DNA of 64,000 nucleotides from an uncultured Candidatus Saccharibacteria bacterium. GTDB taxonomy: Bacteria; Patescibacteriota; Minisyncoccia; Phycocordibacterales; PALSA-1337. Of this stretch, positions 2,848-41,442 are shown one piece after another. The translations under genes were made by a program, and so were the position numbers. Each line of letters starts with the position of its first letter. Position 1 is the stretch's first letter. The stretch is from assembly GCA_964412585.1 (NCBI GenBank), contig CAYPPJ010000002.1:9631-73630 (forward strand), in the 5' to 3' direction. The notes under the pieces were generated by a model. The model ran no database searches. It was not told the DNA's origin and saw only the letters and a program-made list of their open reading frames with translations.

Positions 2848-3808
2848 TGGCGTATTCGAGCGATTCGGCTCGGGTTATTGGCGGCACGTACGAATTGACA
2901 TCAAATACGTTATGCCACACATCAGGTAACACACTACGGGAAACAGCCTCACCCCCATGGCCGCGAAGCATAAGCTCGCAGGCTTCGGCCCGAGACCCGA
3001 CAACGACCACTGAAGAAATTCCCGCGTGAATATCCGGACGAGTAAGCCAATATGAATAGACGCGATTGATCTCGGTAATGAGTGTATTCGGACCCTCAGT
3101 AGCTTCAGCAGCTGCAAGATCGTCACTTCCCCATCCAATAGTCGACGTAAAACAAACCACCCCTTCAGACACAATATAAAGGCCAGTTTTCTTTTTCATC
3201 ACGTGCACAATAAGACTGGTTCCCGGTTCATGCGTCGGTGTGCATGCGGCAACAATTGACTTTGGTGCCACTTCAAAAGCGACGGGTTCGAGATGCGCCT
3301 CGCGAAGCAACGAGATGTGGTGCTCGACATAGGTACGCGGAACAACCGACACACTCGCACGAAGAGTTTCACCAGCAACCGATTTTGGCATAAGATCAAA
3401 TTGGAATAGAGCATCCGCGGCCGAAAGAGGGACATTTTGATCCAGTTTAAATTCGATATTCTGCGCAATTGAACTAAAGTTTGCACTCGGAACCTCCGTC
3501 TGGAATAGATACGCTTTTTCTTCTGGCAAAGACACTTTCACATAACCAAGTGCGTTGGCTGTGGCAAATTCTTTGAGAAGAGCGACAAACTGTGGTTCGT
3601 CCTTGATGTCTCCCCCATCCACCAGACCCGGAGGCAGCTCTTTTGTGGCATATTTTGAAATAATCAGGCCACGAGATGTGCGATGGTACTCGATGCACTT
3701 GATGACATCATCAGAAATGTCGAGGCCCGCATGTGGCATAGCCAAAAAAGCCGGTGGAGGAAATAGTTTGAAGAATAACGAACTCGACATGCAGATATTA
3801 TACCGCAC
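2825..3808 (-). CDS. pilM: type IV pilus assembly ATPase-fold protein PilM
   Basis: Actin-like fold signature near N-terminus (AGLDISDDVIKCIEY...), ~320 aa, first gene of a pilMNO-like cluster. Confidence 0.7.
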   Translation of the reverse strand: MRYNICMSSSLFFKLFPPPAFLAMPHAGLDISDDVIKCIEYHRTSRGLIISKYATKELPPGLVDGGDIKDEPQFVALLKEFATANALGYVKVSLPEEKAYLFQTEVPSANFSSIAQNIEFKLDQNVPLSAADALFQFDLMPKSVAGETLRASVSVVPRTYVEHHISLLREAHLEPVAFEVAPKSIVAACTPTHEPGTSLIVHVMKKKTGLYIVSEGVVCFTSTIGWGSDDLAAAEATEGPNTLITEINRVYSYWLTRPDIHAGISSVVVVGSRAEACELMLRGHGGEAVSRSVLPDVWHNVFDVNSYVPPITRAESLEYAIAAGLAL

Positions 3809-4464: not shown

Positions 4465-4890
4465 CTACTTCGCCTTGGTTCCTGGAGGAATTGATCCATT
4501 TGGCTCGAGAAGAGAAAATGATCCAGCATCAGTCGAAAGTGCAAAGATCATGCCGTTACTCTCATAACCTTTGATCGTGCGAGGCTCAAGATTGGTGACA
4601 AACATACAGGTTTTTCCTACCAATACAGACGGGTCTGGAAAATAAGCGGAGATGCCCGAGACAATTTGTCGAATATCCGCGACTTGTTCTATTACTGGTA
4701 CCGCCACAGGCGCCGTAACTATCTCATGTGAAACTGGTGCACCTGACACGACAGGAGTCTGCGCAGGCAGAGTTTTCATGCCAAAATCAACAGATAATTT
4801 GAGAAGTTTATCAGTATCTGGAATTTTCTCTGCTGACAGTATTTTTCCAGCTGAAATTTCTACTTTTTTGAAATCATCGTAGGTAATCAT
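4465..4890 (-). CDS. tRNA-binding domain protein (EMAP/Trbp111/CsaA-like)
   Basis: KVEISAGKILSAEKIPDTDKLLKLSVDFG ... IVSGISAYFPDPSVLVGKTCMFVTNLEPRTIKGYESNGMIFALS; start placed at MITYDDFKK (the longer ORF would overlap ruvX). Contains a 35-aa insert between the two conserved halves. Confidence 0.7.
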   Translation of the reverse strand: MITYDDFKKVEISAGKILSAEKIPDTDKLLKLSVDFGMKTLPAQTPVVSGAPVSHEIVTAPVAVPVIEQVADIRQIVSGISAYFPDPSVLVGKTCMFVTNLEPRTIKGYESNGMIFALSTDAGSFSLLEPNGSIPPGTKAK

Positions 4891-11000: not shown

Positions 11001-14000
11001 ACTGCTCGTACCATATACGTATATTGTGCCCCACCGCTACTGTCTGTATACGTGGTTCCTGTTACTGGAGTTGCGGTGATCAATGTGAATGGTCCAGCCT
11101 TGCCATTCGTTGACTCGTACACATTGTATCCACGACCTGCATCAGGAGAAGCGTTCCAGGTGATTACCGTGCTTCCGGTACTGTCAGCTCTCGCAACGTT
11201 TGTCACTGGCGCAACCACCTGCATCCTGAGCGTTGGGTCACCCATGAGGTTCATGTGTACTCCTCTGTGTGATTCTGGCAACCCTGCATATCCAGGTAGG
11301 TTGTAGTAGGTGTTGTTGTTTTGACTCGTCTTTGCGCTAAATCCTATCTCTTTGCCAAGTCCCATGTGTGCGAATACCCATACTGGGTTATCAGACCACG
11401 CATTCGTGAGAGCATACCCCTTTGCTGCAAGTGGCGCGCGCAAGAAGTTGTTCTGCACATCCCATTCTTCAAAGTAGCTCGCGAACATTGAATTGAAGAC
11501 GACATTGTATCCGGCCGAAGAAGCAAAGTCGGACGTATAACCTATCCCTGTGGCGCCTGTTAACTGCCCGCCACCAGAACCGCGTGAGAACCAGAGATAG
11601 TTGTTATTACCTTCAACGTTGTTCCAGAATTCAGGTGAATAGAGTGCCTCAAACTGAATACTCTCAATATTCAAAGGCAAGGCTGATCCAAAGAACTGTC
11701 TCTGGAAACTCCTGTTTGTATCACTTGTCATCATTGCCGCTTTTGGATTGTTGTAAATTGCGGAATTGAATACCTTTGTCCTGAAGTCATGATCCTTATC
11801 GAGGTAACGTGACAACAAATCTGTCTCGGTAAGTGGAGTAAAGGCTGGCATATTGTACATATCTACCCTTCCAACCTCGAGTTCAATATCTGATGGAATA
11901 TATGTTGTTGATGTAGTCCATGTTCCATCCATATCTCCATAGAATCCATCAGCCGGCATTGATCTGCTTCCATGTCCATCCGGATTGAGATTGCCGCTCT
12001 TGAATACTGGTATGTGTCCGAGCAAGAATACAGCTTTAGTATTTGTCGGGTCCGCGGTGTAATCGGCCTTGATTGTGCTCTTTACTGAATCCGCCGTCGC
12101 CGTTGAAGGTACGCTATGGTCAAGTACAACCCAACCGTCACCAACCAAATCATCCTTGAGTCTATCTATTTTCGTGGCAAGACTAGTGGCGAATCTCGAG
12201 TCAACCATCAGTATTATTTTTCCTCGAGTTGTTACTTGAGGCAACTCAATACCAGTGTAGATATATGCATCAGCATTATGTTGAGTATTTGCCCTGTTGA
12301 CACGATACTCATATGCTGTGCCTGCCGTGACTGAGGTATCGGTATATGAAGTGATGCCTGTACCACTCCCTATCTGTGTCCATGTACCCGCACCACCTGC
12401 AGGTCCACCTATTACGGTTGAACGGTAGATCGTATAATTCGCACTTGCTTGAGCCCACGGATCTGGATACCAGCTCAGTGTTATTTGCGCTGGAGATTTT
12501 TGCACTACTGCACTCAGACCTAGGAAAGTAATATCCGTATTTGGATTTGCGTCCACGTGCCGTATGACAATAGTAGCTTTTGGCGATGTTCCCAGAGGTC
12601 CAGTACATGTCATTGAATAGCCTGTGCTAATGCTTGGTGAAACAGTCAATGTTCCTGAAGTTGTCGTAGCTCCACTCCAACCGTCTGAGTTATCGTCAAT
12701 ACCATCGGTTAATGTACACGAGGAAGCATTTGTCGAACTCCGAGTAATGAGAGCCTTCTCACCATACATGACCCCTGTCTTACTTGACGTAAGTGTTGCA
12801 GTCACCCCAGTCGATGTCGTCTGCGTTGTCGCCGATACTGCTGGACTCGATGAAGCAGAGACATTGTTTGCCGCATCAAAAGCCTTGATGACATACGAAT
12901 ATGTTGTCGCTGGCGTCAATCCTGAATCCGTAAATGCGAGCGCTGAGGTTGTTGATGCTACAACACCATCTCTGATGACACGATATCCTGCCACACCAAC
13001 ATCGTCGACCGCTGCTCCCCATGTCAGATTGATTGCGCTCGATGATACGGCTGTTGCGGTGACTGCATATGGAGCAAATGGTGGTTGACTATCGCCCCCA
13101 AGTGTCTTGGTTCTGAAAGTCATATCGGACGAGGTGGCAAGGTTGCCCGCAGCGTCTTTTGAATTGACTGAGAAGTGGTAAATCGCATTCGCGGTCAAAC
13201 CACTGATTGTTGCGGTATGACCTGTTACCTTGGTTGAATCAAGAGTAGTGTTGCTGCCATAGCCGTTGGTTGTACCGTAGAGCACTTGCGTGTCAGCAAG
13301 CTCATTGGTATTCCAGGTAATAGTCGCTGTAGTTGTAGTGGTCGTTGACGCAATCCCTGTGATGACTGGCTTGGTCGTATCCGTCTGATTGCCTGACTGA
13401 ATAGTGAATGTGTACTGCGTCGCATTTGGGTTGTCACCACTATATCCATAATCATCATTTTCAACATATACCTTGAGAGGCGTGCCTATGTAGGCAGTAT
13501 ATGTGGTAGAAGTTGGAATCGAGACAATCAAGTTTCCAGCCGCATTTGGGGATATGTTGTAGAAGGAAAATGGACCAATCTGAACTGTGTTATTTTGAGT
13601 AAAATGAGTACCAGAAATGGTCACCATCTGACCGAGCGGGCCTGTGCTTGGGGTCACTCCGGTTATTTTTGTGACATTATCAATCGATAAGATTTCAAAC
13701 GGAACAGCATTACTGATTTTCGTTACACCACCTACCGAGACAGTGTCGGTCAATAGGTACTTCCCTTCCACAATTGTCCCAGGAACATCAGCAACGAGCT
13801 GTGTTCCAGATGAATCAAGATTGCCAATATTTACACCATTGATACCTAGACTAGTGACCGCTCCTGTCGTCGTGCTCGTAAGTTTCAAGTTATTTCCCGT
13901 CAATGCAAAATTTATTCCCTGAATATCCTGTCGGCAGAAATATACGCCGCGAATACAATATGGAAGACTGATTGAATTGATCACGGGAGTCGGAACCTGT

Positions 14001-19066: not shown

Positions 19067-19080
19067 GACACTAGTATAGC

Positions 19081-19203
19081 AGAGAGTCGGAGCCGAGGAG
19101 GGTGTGCACTGTTCCTGTTATTACAATAAACGATGAGGTATGCGGATAACGTGGTAGCTACTATTTCCATAACAGGAACAGTGCACACCCTCCTCGGCTC
19201 TCT
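19081..19203. repeat. Family-1 palindromic element, copy A: 47-nt conserved core in the loop of a 36-bp inverted repeat
   Basis: Arms agagag(tcgga)gccgaggagggtgtgcactgttcctgttat / ataacaggaacagtgcacaccctcctcggctctct (30 bp perfect plus 6 bp with a 5-nt bulge). Loop 19122..19168 tacaataaacgatgaggtatgcggataacgtggtagctactatttcc matches copies B and C. Confidence 0.85.
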
Positions 19204-19239
19204 CTTGCAAAAGAGTGAGATTTCGTCTCTACTTATGAC

Positions 19240-29331: not shown

Positions 29332-29745
29332 AACAGAAAATAACAGCCAGTGTCAATTGCTTTTTGGCTGTGGATAGCGCTAGGCTACAAATTAGAGAAC
29401 GTTCGAACTATTCGAACATTCAAGCTAGAGAATCTCTAAGCAATATCTCGATGCATGATGCATCAAGCGAGGTAGAGTCCCGAGGATAATGCCAGTACGC
29501 ATGACCGAAGTTATGCAACCAATATGTCCTTAGCACTATACCCAAACCTGGGAAGGCCATTGCTTAGAGGTTCACGAGCTCGAATAAGGAAAATCACCTG
29601 GTGGTGACTATAATTTCGTCGAGTAAACAACTAAAAAAGCGACTCTCGCGAGTTCGCATTATGATTGTTGTGTTGGTACACTGTACCTATAGGAATCCCC
29701 GAGGGATCTATAGGTTCCCCAATACACTATCACAATCGTATTAAA

Positions 29746-31929: not shown

Positions 31930-32045
31930 GAGTAAAATACGGCACACATGTTTTTGTACATTGCACAGGCCGCTCTCGGCCGAGCATAGGAACTTTTCAG
32001 CAGAAAAGTATCCGCGTACAAAAACATGTGTGCCGTATTTTACTC
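31930..32045. repeat. Family-2 palindromic element, copy 1: 56-nt structured core inside a perfect 30-bp inverted repeat
   Basis: Arms gagtaaaatacggcacacatgtttttgtac / gtacaaaaacatgtgtgccgtattttactc. Loop attgc-[ggccg ctct cggcc]-gagcataggaa-[cttttc agca gaaaag]-tatccgc; core matches 54090..54143. Confidence 0.85.
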
Positions 32046-37129: not shown

Positions 37130-38476
37130 TTATAACATAGTACGAACCTGGGTTATTTCCTGCGACAGGAGCTGATCGGTTTTTATCTCCTCTCGCATCT
37201 TTTCATACGAATGGATAACCGTGGTGTGGTCTCTACCACCCAATTTTTCTCCAATCGAAGGAAAAGATATCCCAAAATCCTCACGGAGGATATACATGAC
37301 TACCTGACGAGGGCGGACCACCTCTTTTCGGCGTGTTTTATTGTAGATACTGTCCTCATCTATGTTATAAAATTCAGAAACAATCTTAACCACATCCTTC
37401 ACAGACATCATTTTCTTTGGTTTTAGGTTGTTTTTGAGGATATTTCTAATCTCATTAAGATTCAATTCCCTATTTTTTAGCTGCGTCTGACAAGCAATCA
37501 CATTGATAATACCCTCTATCTCACGGATATTATCTTCAATTGACGTGGCAATATAATCAATAATTTCATCAGACAAAGTAATGTTGTGTGTGCCACACTT
37601 GGTGCGCACGATCATCATACGTGATTCTTGGTCAGGTTCAGGGATGTCGACAATCATTCCCATCGAGAAACGGCCTTTTAGACGATCTTCAAGCCCAGGT
37701 ATAACATTTGGGTGTTTATCTCCTGAAAAGACAAGCTGGCGTGCTGTATCGTAGAAAGTGTTGAAGAAATGGAACAATTCTTCCTGAAACTTCTCCTTAC
37801 TTGCGAAGAACTGGATATCATCCATGATAATAACGTCATATTTCCTATACTTATCCTTGAAAGCCTGCACTTTACCCTCTTGGATGGCTGTAAAAAGTTC
37901 AGAACCAAAGCGTTCAGAGGTCAAATAAAACACTTTCTTATCCGGATGTAACTTTTTTATCTGATTTCCAACCGCCTGGATGATGTGGGTCTTTCCTCTT
38001 CCGGTTTGTCCATAAATAAAGAGCGGGTTATATGAGTGCCCGGGGTTTTTTACAACCATTTGTGAGGCGGCATGGGCAAGTTCGTTGAAAGGACCAACAA
38101 CAAGGCTTTCAAAGGTATAGCGTGGATTGAGGTTATCTTCCTTGTTAATGTAGAAGTCCTGCAATGGCATAGCAATAGTGGGTGTAGGAGAAGACTCTTT
38201 GCGAGAATGCTGCCCGCCCTTGCCATCCTCTCGGACAATAACGTACTCCAGCGCTCGCACACGCTCATTCATCTGCCTTAGAATGCGTAAAATTGAGTTA
38301 TGGAACTTTTTTTGGAGCCACTCGTGGGTAAATGAGTTTGGAACGCCGAGGTAGATGGTGCCCTCGTCTTCACGAAGGATACGAATATCTTTGAACCACG
38401 TGGAAAAGTTTGCCTGAGATACAGCGCTTTCAATTTCTATGAGGGCAGTTTGCCACATTTTGCTGTGATCATTCAT
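37130..38476 (-). CDS. dnaA: chromosomal replication initiator protein DnaA
   Basis: AAA+ Walker A GQTGRGKTHIIQAVGNQ, Walker B IIMDDIQF, sensor motifs, C-terminal DNA-binding domain (RRKEVVRPRQVVMYIL). Confidence 0.97.
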   Translation of the reverse strand: MNDHSKMWQTALIEIESAVSQANFSTWFKDIRILREDEGTIYLGVPNSFTHEWLQKKFHNSILRILRQMNERVRALEYVIVREDGKGGQHSRKESSPTPTIAMPLQDFYINKEDNLNPRYTFESLVVGPFNELAHAASQMVVKNPGHSYNPLFIYGQTGRGKTHIIQAVGNQIKKLHPDKKVFYLTSERFGSELFTAIQEGKVQAFKDKYRKYDVIIMDDIQFFASKEKFQEELFHFFNTFYDTARQLVFSGDKHPNVIPGLEDRLKGRFSMGMIVDIPEPDQESRMMIVRTKCGTHNITLSDEIIDYIATSIEDNIREIEGIINVIACQTQLKNRELNLNEIRNILKNNLKPKKMMSVKDVVKIVSEFYNIDEDSIYNKTRRKEVVRPRQVVMYILREDFGISFPSIGEKLGGRDHTTVIHSYEKMREEIKTDQLLSQEITQVRTML

Positions 38477-38571
38477 GATAGGTGTAAATAGGTAGAGTAA
38501 GTATATACCTGTTTATAAATTTGCAAACTTGTGGAGAGTAAAAAAATATGTTGATAAGGTGGGGATAGGGA

Positions 38572-38680
38572 GAACAAGGGGCGGAACAGGTACTTTTTCA
38601 GCTACAATAAAAGATGCGGTATGCGAATTGAGTGGTAGCTACTATTTCCGCTTCAAAAGTACCTGTTCCGCCCCTTGTTC
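38572..38680. repeat. Family-1 palindromic element, copy B (in the dnaA-rpmH divergent region)
   Basis: Arms gaacaaggggcggaacaggtactttttcagc / gcttcaaaagtacctgttccgccccttgttc (26 bp perfect plus imperfect tip). Loop 38603..38649 tacaataaaagatgcggtatgcgaattgagtggtagctactatttcc. Confidence 0.85.
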
Positions 38681-38735
38681 GTGCAAAGCACTATTACTTG
38701 ATAAGAACACACAAATATGTAATAGTGTGTGAACT

Positions 38736-39255: not shown

Positions 39256-40008
39256 ATGTATCACACAATTATCTTCCTCCCTCTCTATAACGGGCTTGTC
39301 GCTATTATGAATATTCTGCCGTGGGCTGATATTGGTGTGGCCGTGATCATATTTACAGCCATTGTAAAGCTTGTGCTGTTTCCTCTTTCAAAATCTTCAC
39401 TTTTGACTCAGGTCAAAATGAAGGAGATTGAACCTGAGGCAAACAAGATTCGTGCCCAGTATGCAAGCGACAAGCAAGCCCAGACACTCAAAGTCATGGA
39501 GCTCTACAAGACAAGAGGGGTAAAACCATTTTCAGGTGTCCTACTCCTCCTCATTCAGCTACCCATACTCCTTGCGCTTATCTCAGTTTTTTACAAAATT
39601 ATTCCCTCGATTCACCCAGAGTTCCTCTATAGTTTCATATCAATGCCAGATATAAGCACTAAGATACATTTTCTAGGCATCATTGACCTTGCACAGAAGA
39701 GTTTTATTTTGTCACTTATTACAGCGATTGTTCAATATTTCCAGCTCCACTACTCGATTGCGACTCGCGCCCCAGCAACTGACGCAGTAGTAGATACTTC
39801 GGCGGCTGGTTCAATGGCTATGACAGCCAACTCAATGACAAAGAATATGAAGTTTTTCCTCCCTATTCTTGCGTTTGCATCAACATACTGGCTTATCCCA
39901 GCACAATTTCCTCAAGCCGCCTCGATTATCGCCATCTATTGGACGATCAGTACCCTCTTTACCTTAGGTCAGGAGCTTTATATTAGGAAGAAGTACGTAA
40001 GTAAATAG
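39256..40008 (+). CDS. yidC: membrane protein insertase YidC (short Gram-positive/CPR type)
   Basis: KMKEIEPEANKIRAQYASDKQAQTLKVMELYKTRGVKPFSG...LLIQLPILLAL - YidC/Oxa1 core. Confidence 0.9.
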   Translation: MYHTIIFLPLYNGLVAIMNILPWADIGVAVIIFTAIVKLVLFPLSKSSLLTQVKMKEIEPEANKIRAQYASDKQAQTLKVMELYKTRGVKPFSGVLLLLIQLPILLALISVFYKIIPSIHPEFLYSFISMPDISTKIHFLGIIDLAQKSFILSLITAIVQYFQLHYSIATRAPATDAVVDTSAAGSMAMTANSMTKNMKFFLPILAFASTYWLIPAQFPQAASIIAIYWTISTLFTLGQELYIRKKYVSK

Positions 40009-40114
40009 CACCGCAGGGGAGCACACATCCTCGCTGCTCCAATAAACGATGCGGTATGCAAATTATGTGGTAGCTACTATTTACGCAGCGAGGATGTGTG
40101 CTCCCCTGCGGTGC
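40008..40114. repeat. Family-1 palindromic element, copy C (between yidC stop and end of the T4SS-like operon)
   Basis: Perfect 30-bp arms gcaccgcaggggagcacacatcctcgctgc / gcagcgaggatgtgtgctcccctgcggtgc. Loop 40038..40084 tccaataaacgatgcggtatgcaaattatgtggtagctactatttac. Confidence 0.85.
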
Positions 40115-40122
40115 GGACTCTA

Positions 40123-41442
40123 TTACTTTGCAGTGAGATCAAGAGACCAAAGAGAGAGGTCGTTCTTGTTCATGAATATTAGAAAACGATCCTTTTCATC
40201 AAGGCCAAGATTGAATGCGTCGATGATTCGGTCAGACGTGTCAACAATTGAGGATATTAGATGAACTTCCCCTGTCGTTGCACTAACCTGCCATATTTTA
40301 TCGACGAACGAAACGGTGCCTTTGTACCAATCATCTGGATAGGTCGCCGCGACTGGTTGGGCGGGAACGGCACAATAGATCATGTCTTTATAGAAGTTAC
40401 CCCAGACGCATTTGTCGGCAAGTGTGCGAATGACCGCGTCAGTTCCTTTCTTTTTATCAACATCAAATATACTTGAAACGATATTGTCCGCGCTTCCCGC
40501 CGCAGAAAGGAAGACCTTTTTCGCATCAACACTTACTTTTGTGCTCAAGCCAGGCAATGGACCAAGAATTTTCTTCCATACGCCTGTTTTTGCATTGACG
40601 AAGTAGAGAAAACCACGTTCGTCTGCCGCGCCCTTTGTTGTGAGAGCGATAGTGTTTTCTTCAGGCCACTCAGCATTTACTTGGGTCACTGGGGTGCTAA
40701 AGAGTGGTAGTGGGGCTGAACCGTCAAATTTGAGTATGTATCCCGCGCCAGCACCCTTTTCATTGATTAACACAAATACACGATCTTTTTTAGGGGATAC
40801 CGCAAAAGTCAGAATATTTTCTGGTAGGTTTTTTCCTTTGAGCTCATAAGGGGTCAGTGCAGAATCGGTTACTGATGTAGTTGTTGATACTTTTGGCATA
40901 ACTCGAGCCCGGAGCTCTGCCCAGATTCCTCCAACATTATTTTTTTCGGTTATACCAAAGGCCAAGAAAGACGAGAGGTTTTTGTTCCACACACTTTCAT
41001 ACATTTTAGGAACAACCGTATTCGAAATAGTTTTGATATCAAGAGTATTTCCGCGTGCCTCATAGACATTACCACGTCCCCTATCGATCCAACGGATAGC
41101 TGTTGTGGTGCTCGCAGCTTTTGCATTGACTGGACCTGTCGTACTTGCCCCATATCCCGCTACTGGCGTATTACTCAAAAGACGAAGGGTTGGAATTTTG
41201 AGCTGTGTACCAGAAGCTGTTGAACCGGTGCCATTTGTGCCTACACGAGGAGTACTTGTGCTCGTGCCTGACGATTGTGTTGGTGTACGACCAAATGGGG
41301 TGAAGCCATTTTGTTGTGTGTTTGATGGTTCGCCAAAGTCTGTTGTACCGATTCCCCGCACAAAGAAGTACCAGTATGCGCCACCAGCGATGATGAGTAG
41401 AATAATGAGGCCTATGATGTATTTTAGGGATTTTGAGGTCAT
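40123..41442 (-). CDS. membrane-anchored protein with S/T-rich linker and beta-propeller-like domain (last gene of T4SS-like operon)
   Basis: N-terminal TM IIGLIILLIIAGGAYWYFFV, then TPTQSSGTSTSTP... low complexity, then ~330-aa globular domain. Confidence 0.55.
   Translation of the reverse strand: MTSKSLKYIIGLIILLIIAGGAYWYFFVRGIGTTDFGEPSNTQQNGFTPFGRTPTQSSGTSTSTPRVGTNGTGSTASGTQLKIPTLRLLSNTPVAGYGASTTGPVNAKAASTTTAIRWIDRGRGNVYEARGNTLDIKTISNTVVPKMYESVWNKNLSSFLAFGITEKNNVGGIWAELRARVMPKVSTTTSVTDSALTPYELKGKNLPENILTFAVSPKKDRVFVLINEKGAGAGYILKFDGSAPLPLFSTPVTQVNAEWPEENTIALTTKGAADERGFLYFVNAKTGVWKKILGPLPGLSTKVSVDAKKVFLSAAGSADNIVSSIFDVDKKKGTDAVIRTLADKCVWGNFYKDMIYCAVPAQPVAATYPDDWYKGTVSFVDKIWQVSATTGEVHLISSIVDTSDRIIDAFNLGLDEKDRFLIFMNKNDLSLWSLDLTAK

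Follow-up and report, generated by a model that had tools for sequence, protein, structure and literature searches.

The small repeats that lie between bacterial genes, such as repetitive extragenic palindromes (REP), bacterial interspersed mosaic elements (BIME), REP doublets forming hairpins (REPIN), and miniature inverted-repeat transposable elements (MITE), are defined by conserved arms. In the BIME-1/RIP elements, which bind IHF, a conserved protein-binding linker lies between inverted REPs. Stem-loops also mark the nick sites of rolling-circle (HUH Rep) replication, e.g. the nonanucleotide loop of circular Rep-encoding single-stranded DNA (CRESS-DNA) viruses, IR-II of pT181, and CS-6 of ssoA. 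REPIN hairpins are maintained by compensatory changes and persist for long periods through vertical inheritance (PMC3116915); RAYT proteins recognise a hairpin together with a GTAG tetranucleotide on single-stranded DNA (PMC8266576). The 64,000-nt stretch of an uncultured Candidatus Saccharibacteria bacterium analysed here (the window; contig CAYPPJ010000002.1, positions 9,631 to 73,630) contains three copies, A, B, and C, of an intergenic stem-loop unit of ~110-125 bp, designated family 1, in which the pattern is opposite to that of the conserved-arm repeats. Such a pattern demands another recognition logic, with the sequence read in the loop and only the shape in the stem.

A preliminary description of the window had reported three near-identical 47-nt cores in the same orientation, each within a long inverted repeat, and both observations hold. 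A 43-nt IUPAC pattern of the core has exactly three matches, all on the + strand (19124-19166, 38605-38647, and 40040-40082), and none in 100 dinucleotide-preserving shuffles; the inverted repeats around the cores are perfect over 32, 26, and 30 bp in A, B, and C, respectively. The three copies are composed as follows.

19081-19209, + strand: copy A, whole element, with an outer imperfect palindrome (one bulge), a perfect 32-bp stem, and the 47-nt core
19086-19204, + strand: copy A, covariance-model match (120.6 bits)
19090-19121, no strand assigned: copy A, left arm, pairing perfectly with 19169-19200
19169-19200, no strand assigned: copy A, right arm, 32 bp
19122-19168, + strand: copy A, core of 47 nt, TACAATAAACGATGAGGTATGCGGATAACGTGGTAGCTACTATTTCC
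38572-38680, + strand: copy B, whole element, with perfect arms 38572-38597 and 38655-38680 (26 bp)
38603-38649, + strand: copy B, core
40008-40114, + strand: copy C, whole element, with perfect arms 40008-40037 and 40085-40114 (30 bp)
40038-40084, + strand: copy C, core

Between its perfect arms and its core, copy B has a 2-nt mismatch and three more pairs. The core of copy A folds with a 3x3 internal loop followed by a 4-bp helix (19125-19128 with 19162-19165), leaving a terminal loop of 33 nt, and it includes a variable 7-mer at 19144-19150 and a 14-nt dyad, GTGGTAGCTACTAT, at 19151-19164. The conserved blocks of the loop are T(A/C)CAATAAACG, GGTATGC, and the 16-mer GTGGTAGCTACTATTT, the last of which is invariant across the three cores, while the 7-nt spacer between the last two drifts freely. 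The sequence GTAGCTAC is confined to the three core sites within the 64 kb. Beyond the 4-bp AAUA/UAUU helix, no internal core fold is common to all copies. All three elements fold far more stably than shuffled sequences on either strand (z = -7.5 to -12).

The arms had been called completely different. This stands for A, B, and C, among which similarity is not significant in either orientation (best p = 0.02, uncorrected, in 12 tests); it does not extend to contig L007, treated below, which has an A-like left arm beside a different left flank. When all copies found are aligned (7 distinct sequences from 4 loci), 27 columns are invariant in the core and 0 in the arms. Assembly artefacts can be dismissed as the source of the elements, since A, B, and C recur in identical form in at least seven assemblies made independently by JGI (metagenomes 33000453xx) and Logan.

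In the same alignment (A1), 98.1% of the stem cells are paired. All 26 of the 26 long-stem pairs have changed on both sides, which none of 500 shuffles reaches, and slid registers are far off too. The closest named relative in the data is a metagenome-assembled genome (MAG) of Ca. Taylorbacteria, nzgw447 (GCA_023269245.1), whose YidC is 88% and Fpg 77% identical. At site C, the window and nzgw447 (contig L010) share 22 of 30 stem positions; all eight differences are compensated, and neither stem has a mismatch. At site A, pairing in nzgw447 is unbroken over 37 bp, the inner 22 nt of the stem being conserved and its outer part changed with compensation; over all copies the stem length ranges from 26 to 37 bp. 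Even the 4-bp helix in the core has one compensated change, A-T to G-C, in contig L024 of nzgw447. These results strongly support one of the two readings offered in the preliminary description, namely that the stem is kept paired by covariation or conversion. Because stem changes have been fixed as compensated pairs, drift has given every locus a stem sequence of its own.

When the window is compared with nzgw447, identity at 4-fold codon sites is down to saturation (32-41%), whereas the stems are 73-86% and the cores 81-85% identical; the 7-nt core spacer matches at 5 of 14 positions. Between the window and a closer Logan relative, L022, 26% of the 4-fold sites differ, as against 3 of 111 positions of the element; these three are single uncompensated changes, none of which falls in the core (47/47 identical). 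Family 1 is thereby a clean natural test for long perfect palindromes, in which selection on pairing may be set against arm-to-arm conversion. Conversion alone would give the neutral rate, and the stems are several-fold slower than neutral sites. This points to purifying selection on the Watson-Crick pairing of the stem and, separately, on the blocks of the loop.

The core itself can be turned around. At site A of nzgw447 it is reverse-complemented with respect to the window, while the arms and flanks keep their orientation, and the inverted core remains 40/47 identical to that of the window. This is what recombination between the arms would produce. Core orientation is uniform within each population (7-8 contigs each), and the inversion is seen only between species. 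The loop works, or is at any rate retained, whichever way round it lies.

Family 1 was found only in the source organism, in L022, and in nzgw447. A fourth locus, on contig L001 of nzgw447, is flanked by ORFs of 365 and 215 aa that are both read from one strand, and it combines a near-canonical core with another perfect 30-bp stem, different from those of A, B, and C. The strict core pattern, searched against 185,579 species genomes, matched nzgw447 only, although this pattern misses diverged cores such as those of L010 and L024. Two metagenome scans gave 0 matches in a collection that evidently lacks the JGI samples holding the source genome, and a covariance model (R1) found no further copies over 213 kb of related loci.

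Orthologous sites show how the units were gained. Site C is occupied in the window and nzgw447 (L010) and empty in seven relatives (L011, L012, L015, L017, L019, L020, and L021), in which yidC and the neighbouring 439-aa gene overlap or are at most 33 nt apart, with no hairpin between them. Site A is occupied in the window, L022/L023, and nzgw447 (L024/L025), whereas L026 has no element there, only a short amidase-fpg spacer that lacks a palindrome. Since the empty sites lack any hairpin, stem and loop arrived together at A and C. In a neighbour-joining tree of YidC, the window pairs with nzgw447, and at least two empty lineages lie outside. The most economical account is that a complete unit was inserted once per site (A and C) in the common ancestor of the window and nzgw447 and was then inherited vertically. 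The insertion points are gene-free junctions, where either two stop codons or two divergent promoters face each other across the gap. No direct repeat that could represent a target-site duplication was seen at the boundaries when filled and empty sites A and C were compared.

One contig bears on how copies may arise. L007 (JGI 3300045377; hybrid part at 1-385) is 99.97% identical to the window from 19120 onward over 7.7 kb, and left of 19084, which is the element boundary, an unrelated ORF replaces the flank of the window. Its left arm is A-like, with ~5 differences from A, and no longer pairs with the right arm. L007 may have arisen by recombination of two elements, or else as a chimera assembled through a core that two elements share; either way, it points to another locus that has the core of copy A beside an A-like arm. 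The position of its junction at the element boundary fits the copying of whole units.

Copy A lies between the divergent amidase (start 19066, - strand) and fpg (start 19240, + strand) genes, whose starts are 173 nt apart, as had been noted. It had further been stated that both promoters must overlap the element. This is not required, because the putative promoters lie outside the perfect arms.

19073-19081, - strand: inferred extended -10 of the amidase gene, TGCTATACT, read from the sequence
19205-19233, + strand: inferred fpg promoter, TTGCAA-N17-TCTACT, read from the sequence, just outside the right arm and 6 nt before the ATG

The core of the amidase -10, TGCTATA (TATAGCA on the + strand), is also found at the empty site A of L026. 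A consensus promoter scan of the copy A region returned nothing, including at both of these sites; consensus promoter and terminator scans of 40 kb gave counts near the shuffle level and are not informative. Extended -10 promoters (TGnTATAAT-like) seemingly lie 6-10 nt before the ATG at 19067-19081 and 19228-19239 of the window and at ~2965-2990 (- strand) of L001, and the mRNAs would therefore be leaderless or nearly so.

Copy B lies between dnaA (37130-38476, - strand) and rpmH (38736, + strand), directly upstream of the -35 of the rpmH promoter, which the promoter scan places at 38698-38726. It adjoins DnaA-box-like sequences at the minimum of the cumulative GC skew. The dnaA-rpmH spacer (38480-38735) contains DnaA-box-like TTATCAACA and CTATCCCCA (reverse strand) and an AT-rich stretch, with copy B placed between the DnaA-box-like sequences and the rpmH -35; because of these features and the skew minimum, the spacer is probably oriC. 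Copy C takes up the space from stop codon to stop codon between two convergent genes, yidC (39256-40008, + strand) and the 439-aa gene (40123-41442, - strand). It is located at the boundary of a conserved type IV secretion/pilus-like cluster (40123-~52000; T4SS_pilin, TraG-like P-loop, TraC-like, and PrgI), which is found directly downstream of yidC in all relatives. Family 1 is maintained by purifying selection at fixed loci of the tiny streamlined genomes of the candidate phyla radiation (CPR; Patescibacteria), with one copy beside the replication origin, and this suggests a function.

Family 1 can now be compared with the described systems. It resembles REPINs and BIMEs in being small, intergenic, and multi-copy, with two inverted arms and a spacer that fold as a long hairpin in single-stranded DNA or RNA, and it fits the REPIN pattern of an extragenic hairpin kept by compensatory changes. 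However, REPs have one conserved arm sequence in all members, whereas no significant similarity links the arms of family 1 at A, B, C, and L001, and the REPIN arrangement of conserved arms and a less conserved spacer (PMC3116915) is reversed. A conserved GTAG lies directly 5' of each REP palindrome (PMC8266576); in family 1, GTAG occurs only in the loop dyad GTAGCTAC, where GTAG and CTAC form a head-to-head dyad, and not at the feet of the arms. A REPIN genome carries a single-copy RAYT (Y1 HUH transposase) gene, and no RAYT gene was seen in the 64 kb and its flanks. Like family 1, MITEs (e.g. Correia/NEMIS, RPE) are short non-coding intergenic insertions that are present or absent between related genomes. 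They have terminal inverted repeats common to all copies and target-site duplications, and family 1 has neither; the contrast with MITEs drawn in the preliminary description, with arms that vary and a conserved interior, was correct.

The hairpins of rolling-circle origins, which are read in extruded or single-stranded DNA, show a conserved loop sequence on a stem differing between replicons, and the conservation pattern of family 1 fits this; as for a nick-site motif, TACTATTTC matches the nonanucleotide TAGTATTAC at only 7 of 9 positions. Those hairpins, however, have stems of ~9-15 bp and loops of 6-13 nt and occur beside a rep gene, one per replicon, whereas family 1 has stems of 26-37 bp, a 47-nt loop, and three chromosomal copies in 64 kb with no rep gene. 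Integron attC sites are imperfect palindromes recognised as folded single-stranded hairpins, mainly by structure, and their stem sequence is weakly conserved. Their stem base carries conserved R''/L''-L'/R' boxes, their terminal loop varies, and they lie in cassette arrays beside an integrase gene (intI), whereas in family 1 the stem bases are not conserved, the loop is, and the neighbours are housekeeping genes. Invertons also hold a short segment between inverted repeats in both orientations, as seen at site A between the window and nzgw447; both orientations coexist in a population of invertons, whereas family 1 has one orientation per population, no recombinase site shared by the arms, and no core promoter. 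By these defining features, family 1 is not a REP/REPIN, MITE, attC site, or inverton, and it is likewise neither an intrinsic terminator nor a member of an Rfam family.

Searches for other identities gave the following results. At the gathering threshold, Rfam returned tRNAs only; at permissive E-values there were sub-threshold miRNA-precursor models, which are matches to generic long hairpins. ARAGORN found nothing at the element sites. The core had no blastn match in 50,697 phage and 72,556 plasmid records, and two core patterns had 0 matches in viral contigs. The stems do not look like guides or spacers, as 20-mers of the three stems had 0 matches in viral contigs and their longest exact match elsewhere in the window, 10 nt, equals the shuffled expectation. 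Nor do they look like flanking target DNA, since nothing resembling the site-C stems occurs at empty sites, whether at the ends of the genes or in the spacers of 0-33 nt. A coding role was rejected since the ATG of the core meets a stop after 5 codons in copy B, and a promoter module was rejected since copy A has no sigma-70-like site and the -10-like TACAAT varies between copies (C, L001, and L010 have TCCAAT). The DnaA-box candidate TTATCCGCA is restricted to the variable 7-mer of copy A, and no IHF, dif, or parS consensus sequences were seen by eye.

The reading that we tentatively prefer, and regard as quite possible though short of probable, is that family 1 acts as a single strand folded on itself, whose stem may have any sequence and serves to show a conserved loop to a trans-acting factor. 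The closest analogy is the recognition of REP and REPIN hairpins by RAYT proteins, although here the specificity would lie in the loop and not in the arms. The folded single-stranded hairpin would be the acting form, the stem would display the 33-nt loop with its 14-nt dyad, and a sequence-specific factor would read the loop so displayed. The active form would more likely be DNA, as a hairpin on single-stranded DNA or a cruciform, than RNA. New copies might arise through the copying of whole units, and paralogues with unrelated stems would be old, or derived from different source copies. A fold at the DNA level, or on both strands, is favoured by several observations. G.U occurs in only 3 of 206 stem cells, as against 5 of 54 predicted pairs in a neighbouring conserved non-coding region of the same genome; about half of the compensated changes are transversions; the loop can be inverted and has no shared fold; and copies A and B lie upstream of the flanking promoters, which are putative at copy A, and outside the predicted transcription units.

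Several points weigh against this. No candidate gene for a trans-acting protein was found in the window and the syntenic loci, which contain housekeeping genes only. The loops are not consistently oriented with respect to the direction of replication deduced from GC skew. A 47-nt spacer disfavours cruciform extrusion from duplex DNA, and a DNA mechanism therefore needs single-stranded phases. Despite the fairly recent gain of A and C, no relationship is seen among the stems of the four loci (A, B, C, and L001), and whole-unit copying therefore needs diverse source copies elsewhere in the genome. The nzgw447 copies L010 and L024 have changed within the 'conserved' blocks, so that the constraint is not absolute, and the evidence comes from only the four loci and seven distinct sequences given above. 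Finally, hairpin folding in transcripts of both strands would likewise avoid G.U, and pervasive or bidirectional transcription could be an RNA route to the same signature.

An RNA explanation is possible, though rather unlikely. It holds that the units are transcribed, that the long stem is a processing or stability signal, e.g. an RNase III substrate like the stems flanking rRNA, and that a conserved small RNA of ~47 nt is released or displayed; the GUAGCUAC palindrome could then serve loop-loop dimerisation or protein binding. As RNA, the hairpins are very stable (z values above), and functional RNAs are classically recognised by covariation in a stem that carries a conserved loop. Of the three single changes in L022, two yield G.T on the + strand; copies C and L001 are in 3'-UTR positions, and the loop of a sister family of palindromes, family 2, contains two covarying hairpins with conserved joining segments. 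However, there is no promoter-like site in or before copy A, copy B is upstream of the rpmH -35, and G.U makes up only 1.5% of the cells. The loop has no consistent internal fold, no Rfam family matches it, and the core at site A of nzgw447 is inverted, yet it is 40/47 identical and keeps the 4-bp helix.

It is improbable that family 1 is purely selfish, non-autonomous mobile DNA of REPIN or MITE type, with a transposase encoded elsewhere, no host function, and a conservation that reflects only the requirement of the enzyme. Such elements would be gained in particular lineages at 'safe' intergenic spots, as family 1 was, and would be multi-copy and hairpin-forming. The dyad of the loop holds GTAG/CTAC, and GTAG is the tetranucleotide needed by RAYTs (PMC8266576). 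Compensatory changes and long vertical persistence are known in REPINs as well (PMC3116915), and the hybrid L007 suggests copies with related arms. On the other hand, copies at the same locus keep stem and loop while neutral sites saturate, which selection on mobility alone would not predict for individual old copies. No arms are common to loci A, B, C, and L001, the covariance model found no near-identical paralogues in 213 kb, and neither the window nor the syntenic loci contain a transposase or HUH gene.

The sister family has to be described before the next explanation can be considered.

31930-32045, no strand assigned: sister element, family 2, built like family 1, in which perfect 30-bp arms enclose 56 nt of loop that differ from the family 1 core and contain two small hairpins

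This is the sole other long perfect palindrome in the 64 kb. Further family 2 sites are found in L012 (2598-2766 and 9340-9457) and L017 (40-196). The inner ends of the arms, CGGCACA..TTTTTG, are common to different loci, and the loops have 56 nt (two hairpins), 107 nt (longer hairpins with conserved joining segments), or 95 nt (a nested hairpin). The 56-nt loop, core 2, is also seen reverse-complemented in a differently-armed palindrome upstream of rpmH in L012. At site B, a palindrome is present at the same position in L012, L015, and L017/L018, the arms of these share an AAGC...TTTTTG frame, and their loops are unrelated: L012 has the reverse complement of core 2, and L017/L018 have a loop of 95 nt, within which a hairpin is nested in L017. 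Overall, it looks as if the arms and loops of the sister palindromes have been reassorted.

The second reading of the preliminary description took the 47-nt core of family 1 as a mobile module that enters or replaces the loops of resident long hairpins, and we consider this quite improbable. Three unrelated loops (core 1, core 2 in reverse complement, and the 95-nt loop) occupy the site B palindrome at the same spot in several genomes, family 2 arms enclose any of three loops, core 2 is found in both orientations and between either of two arm sets, and in L017 a hairpin is nested inside a loop. However, the empty sites A and C lack any hairpin that could have received a core, and none of these sites has an 'unoccupied' long hairpin with a small loop. 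The site B arms of the window are not significantly similar to those of L012 and L017 (p = 0.04-0.08, uncorrected), and site B lacks a palindrome in the nearest outgroup, L011, so that separate insertions at a hotspot would account for it just as well. The reading thus fails at A and C; elsewhere it may still hold, because arms and loops are mosaic in the neighbouring palindrome families.

Bidirectional terminators or protectors of mRNA 3' ends, with an incidental loop, are hardly credible: copy C does lie between convergent genes, the L001 copy just past a stop codon and ahead of the next promoter, and all-Watson-Crick stems suit folding on both strands, but an intrinsic terminator has a GC-rich stem, a short loop, and a T-tract, whereas family 1 has a 47-nt loop and no T-tract after its stems, the terminator scan is empty at all three elements, copies A and B lie between divergent promoters with nothing to terminate, the conservation of the loop sequence is unexplained, and the relative has a canonical terminator with a 17-bp stem and a 3-nt loop (L001 7875-7911).

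With displayed loops as the preferred reading, a wider possibility, though a rather unlikely one, is that these palindromes are an undescribed, host-selected class of chromosomal hairpins. An arbitrary stem would display a loop 'address' to a dedicated hairpin-reading protein or, as RNA, the units would be long-hairpin small-RNA genes, and the modules core 1, core 2, and core 3 would be exchangeable between stems; this would be a modular system and not decaying mobile DNA.

A hexamer, GTGTGC/GCACAC, recurs in the middle of the arms of copy A (19102-19107), copy C (40021-40026), and family 2 (31942-31947). Of 8 independent loci, 3 have it exactly, while L024 and L001 have something close to it; the arms are otherwise unrelated, and the hexamer could reflect either a deep common ancestry of the palindromes or a functional motif.

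The ends of contigs L006, L008, L009, L015, L017, L031, and L033 lie within ~220 nt of palindromes, and L009 and L015 start inside one. Palindromes thus appear to be breakpoints of metagenome assembly. This is of practical importance, as such palindromes break assemblies and one contig looks hybrid, joined at the element.

Two further observations concern other parts of these genomes. A non-coding stretch of ~170 nt between a 111-aa gene and ruvB (window 29427-29596; L012 ~430-600; L024 ~11290-11460) is ~99% identical across three genomes whose 4-fold codon sites are saturated. Its predicted fold has multiple hairpins with G.U pairs, it has no Rfam match at E<=1, and it is probably an unannotated structured RNA gene. 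In L001, a palindrome at 4680-4816 (arms of 16-25 bp with ~90-105 nt between them) lies in frame within a 265-aa ORF, which we take to be ComF/phosphoribosyltransferase-like. It adds a low-complexity segment rich in Ala, Pro, and Ser, and it recalls the Rickettsia palindromic elements inserted in genes.

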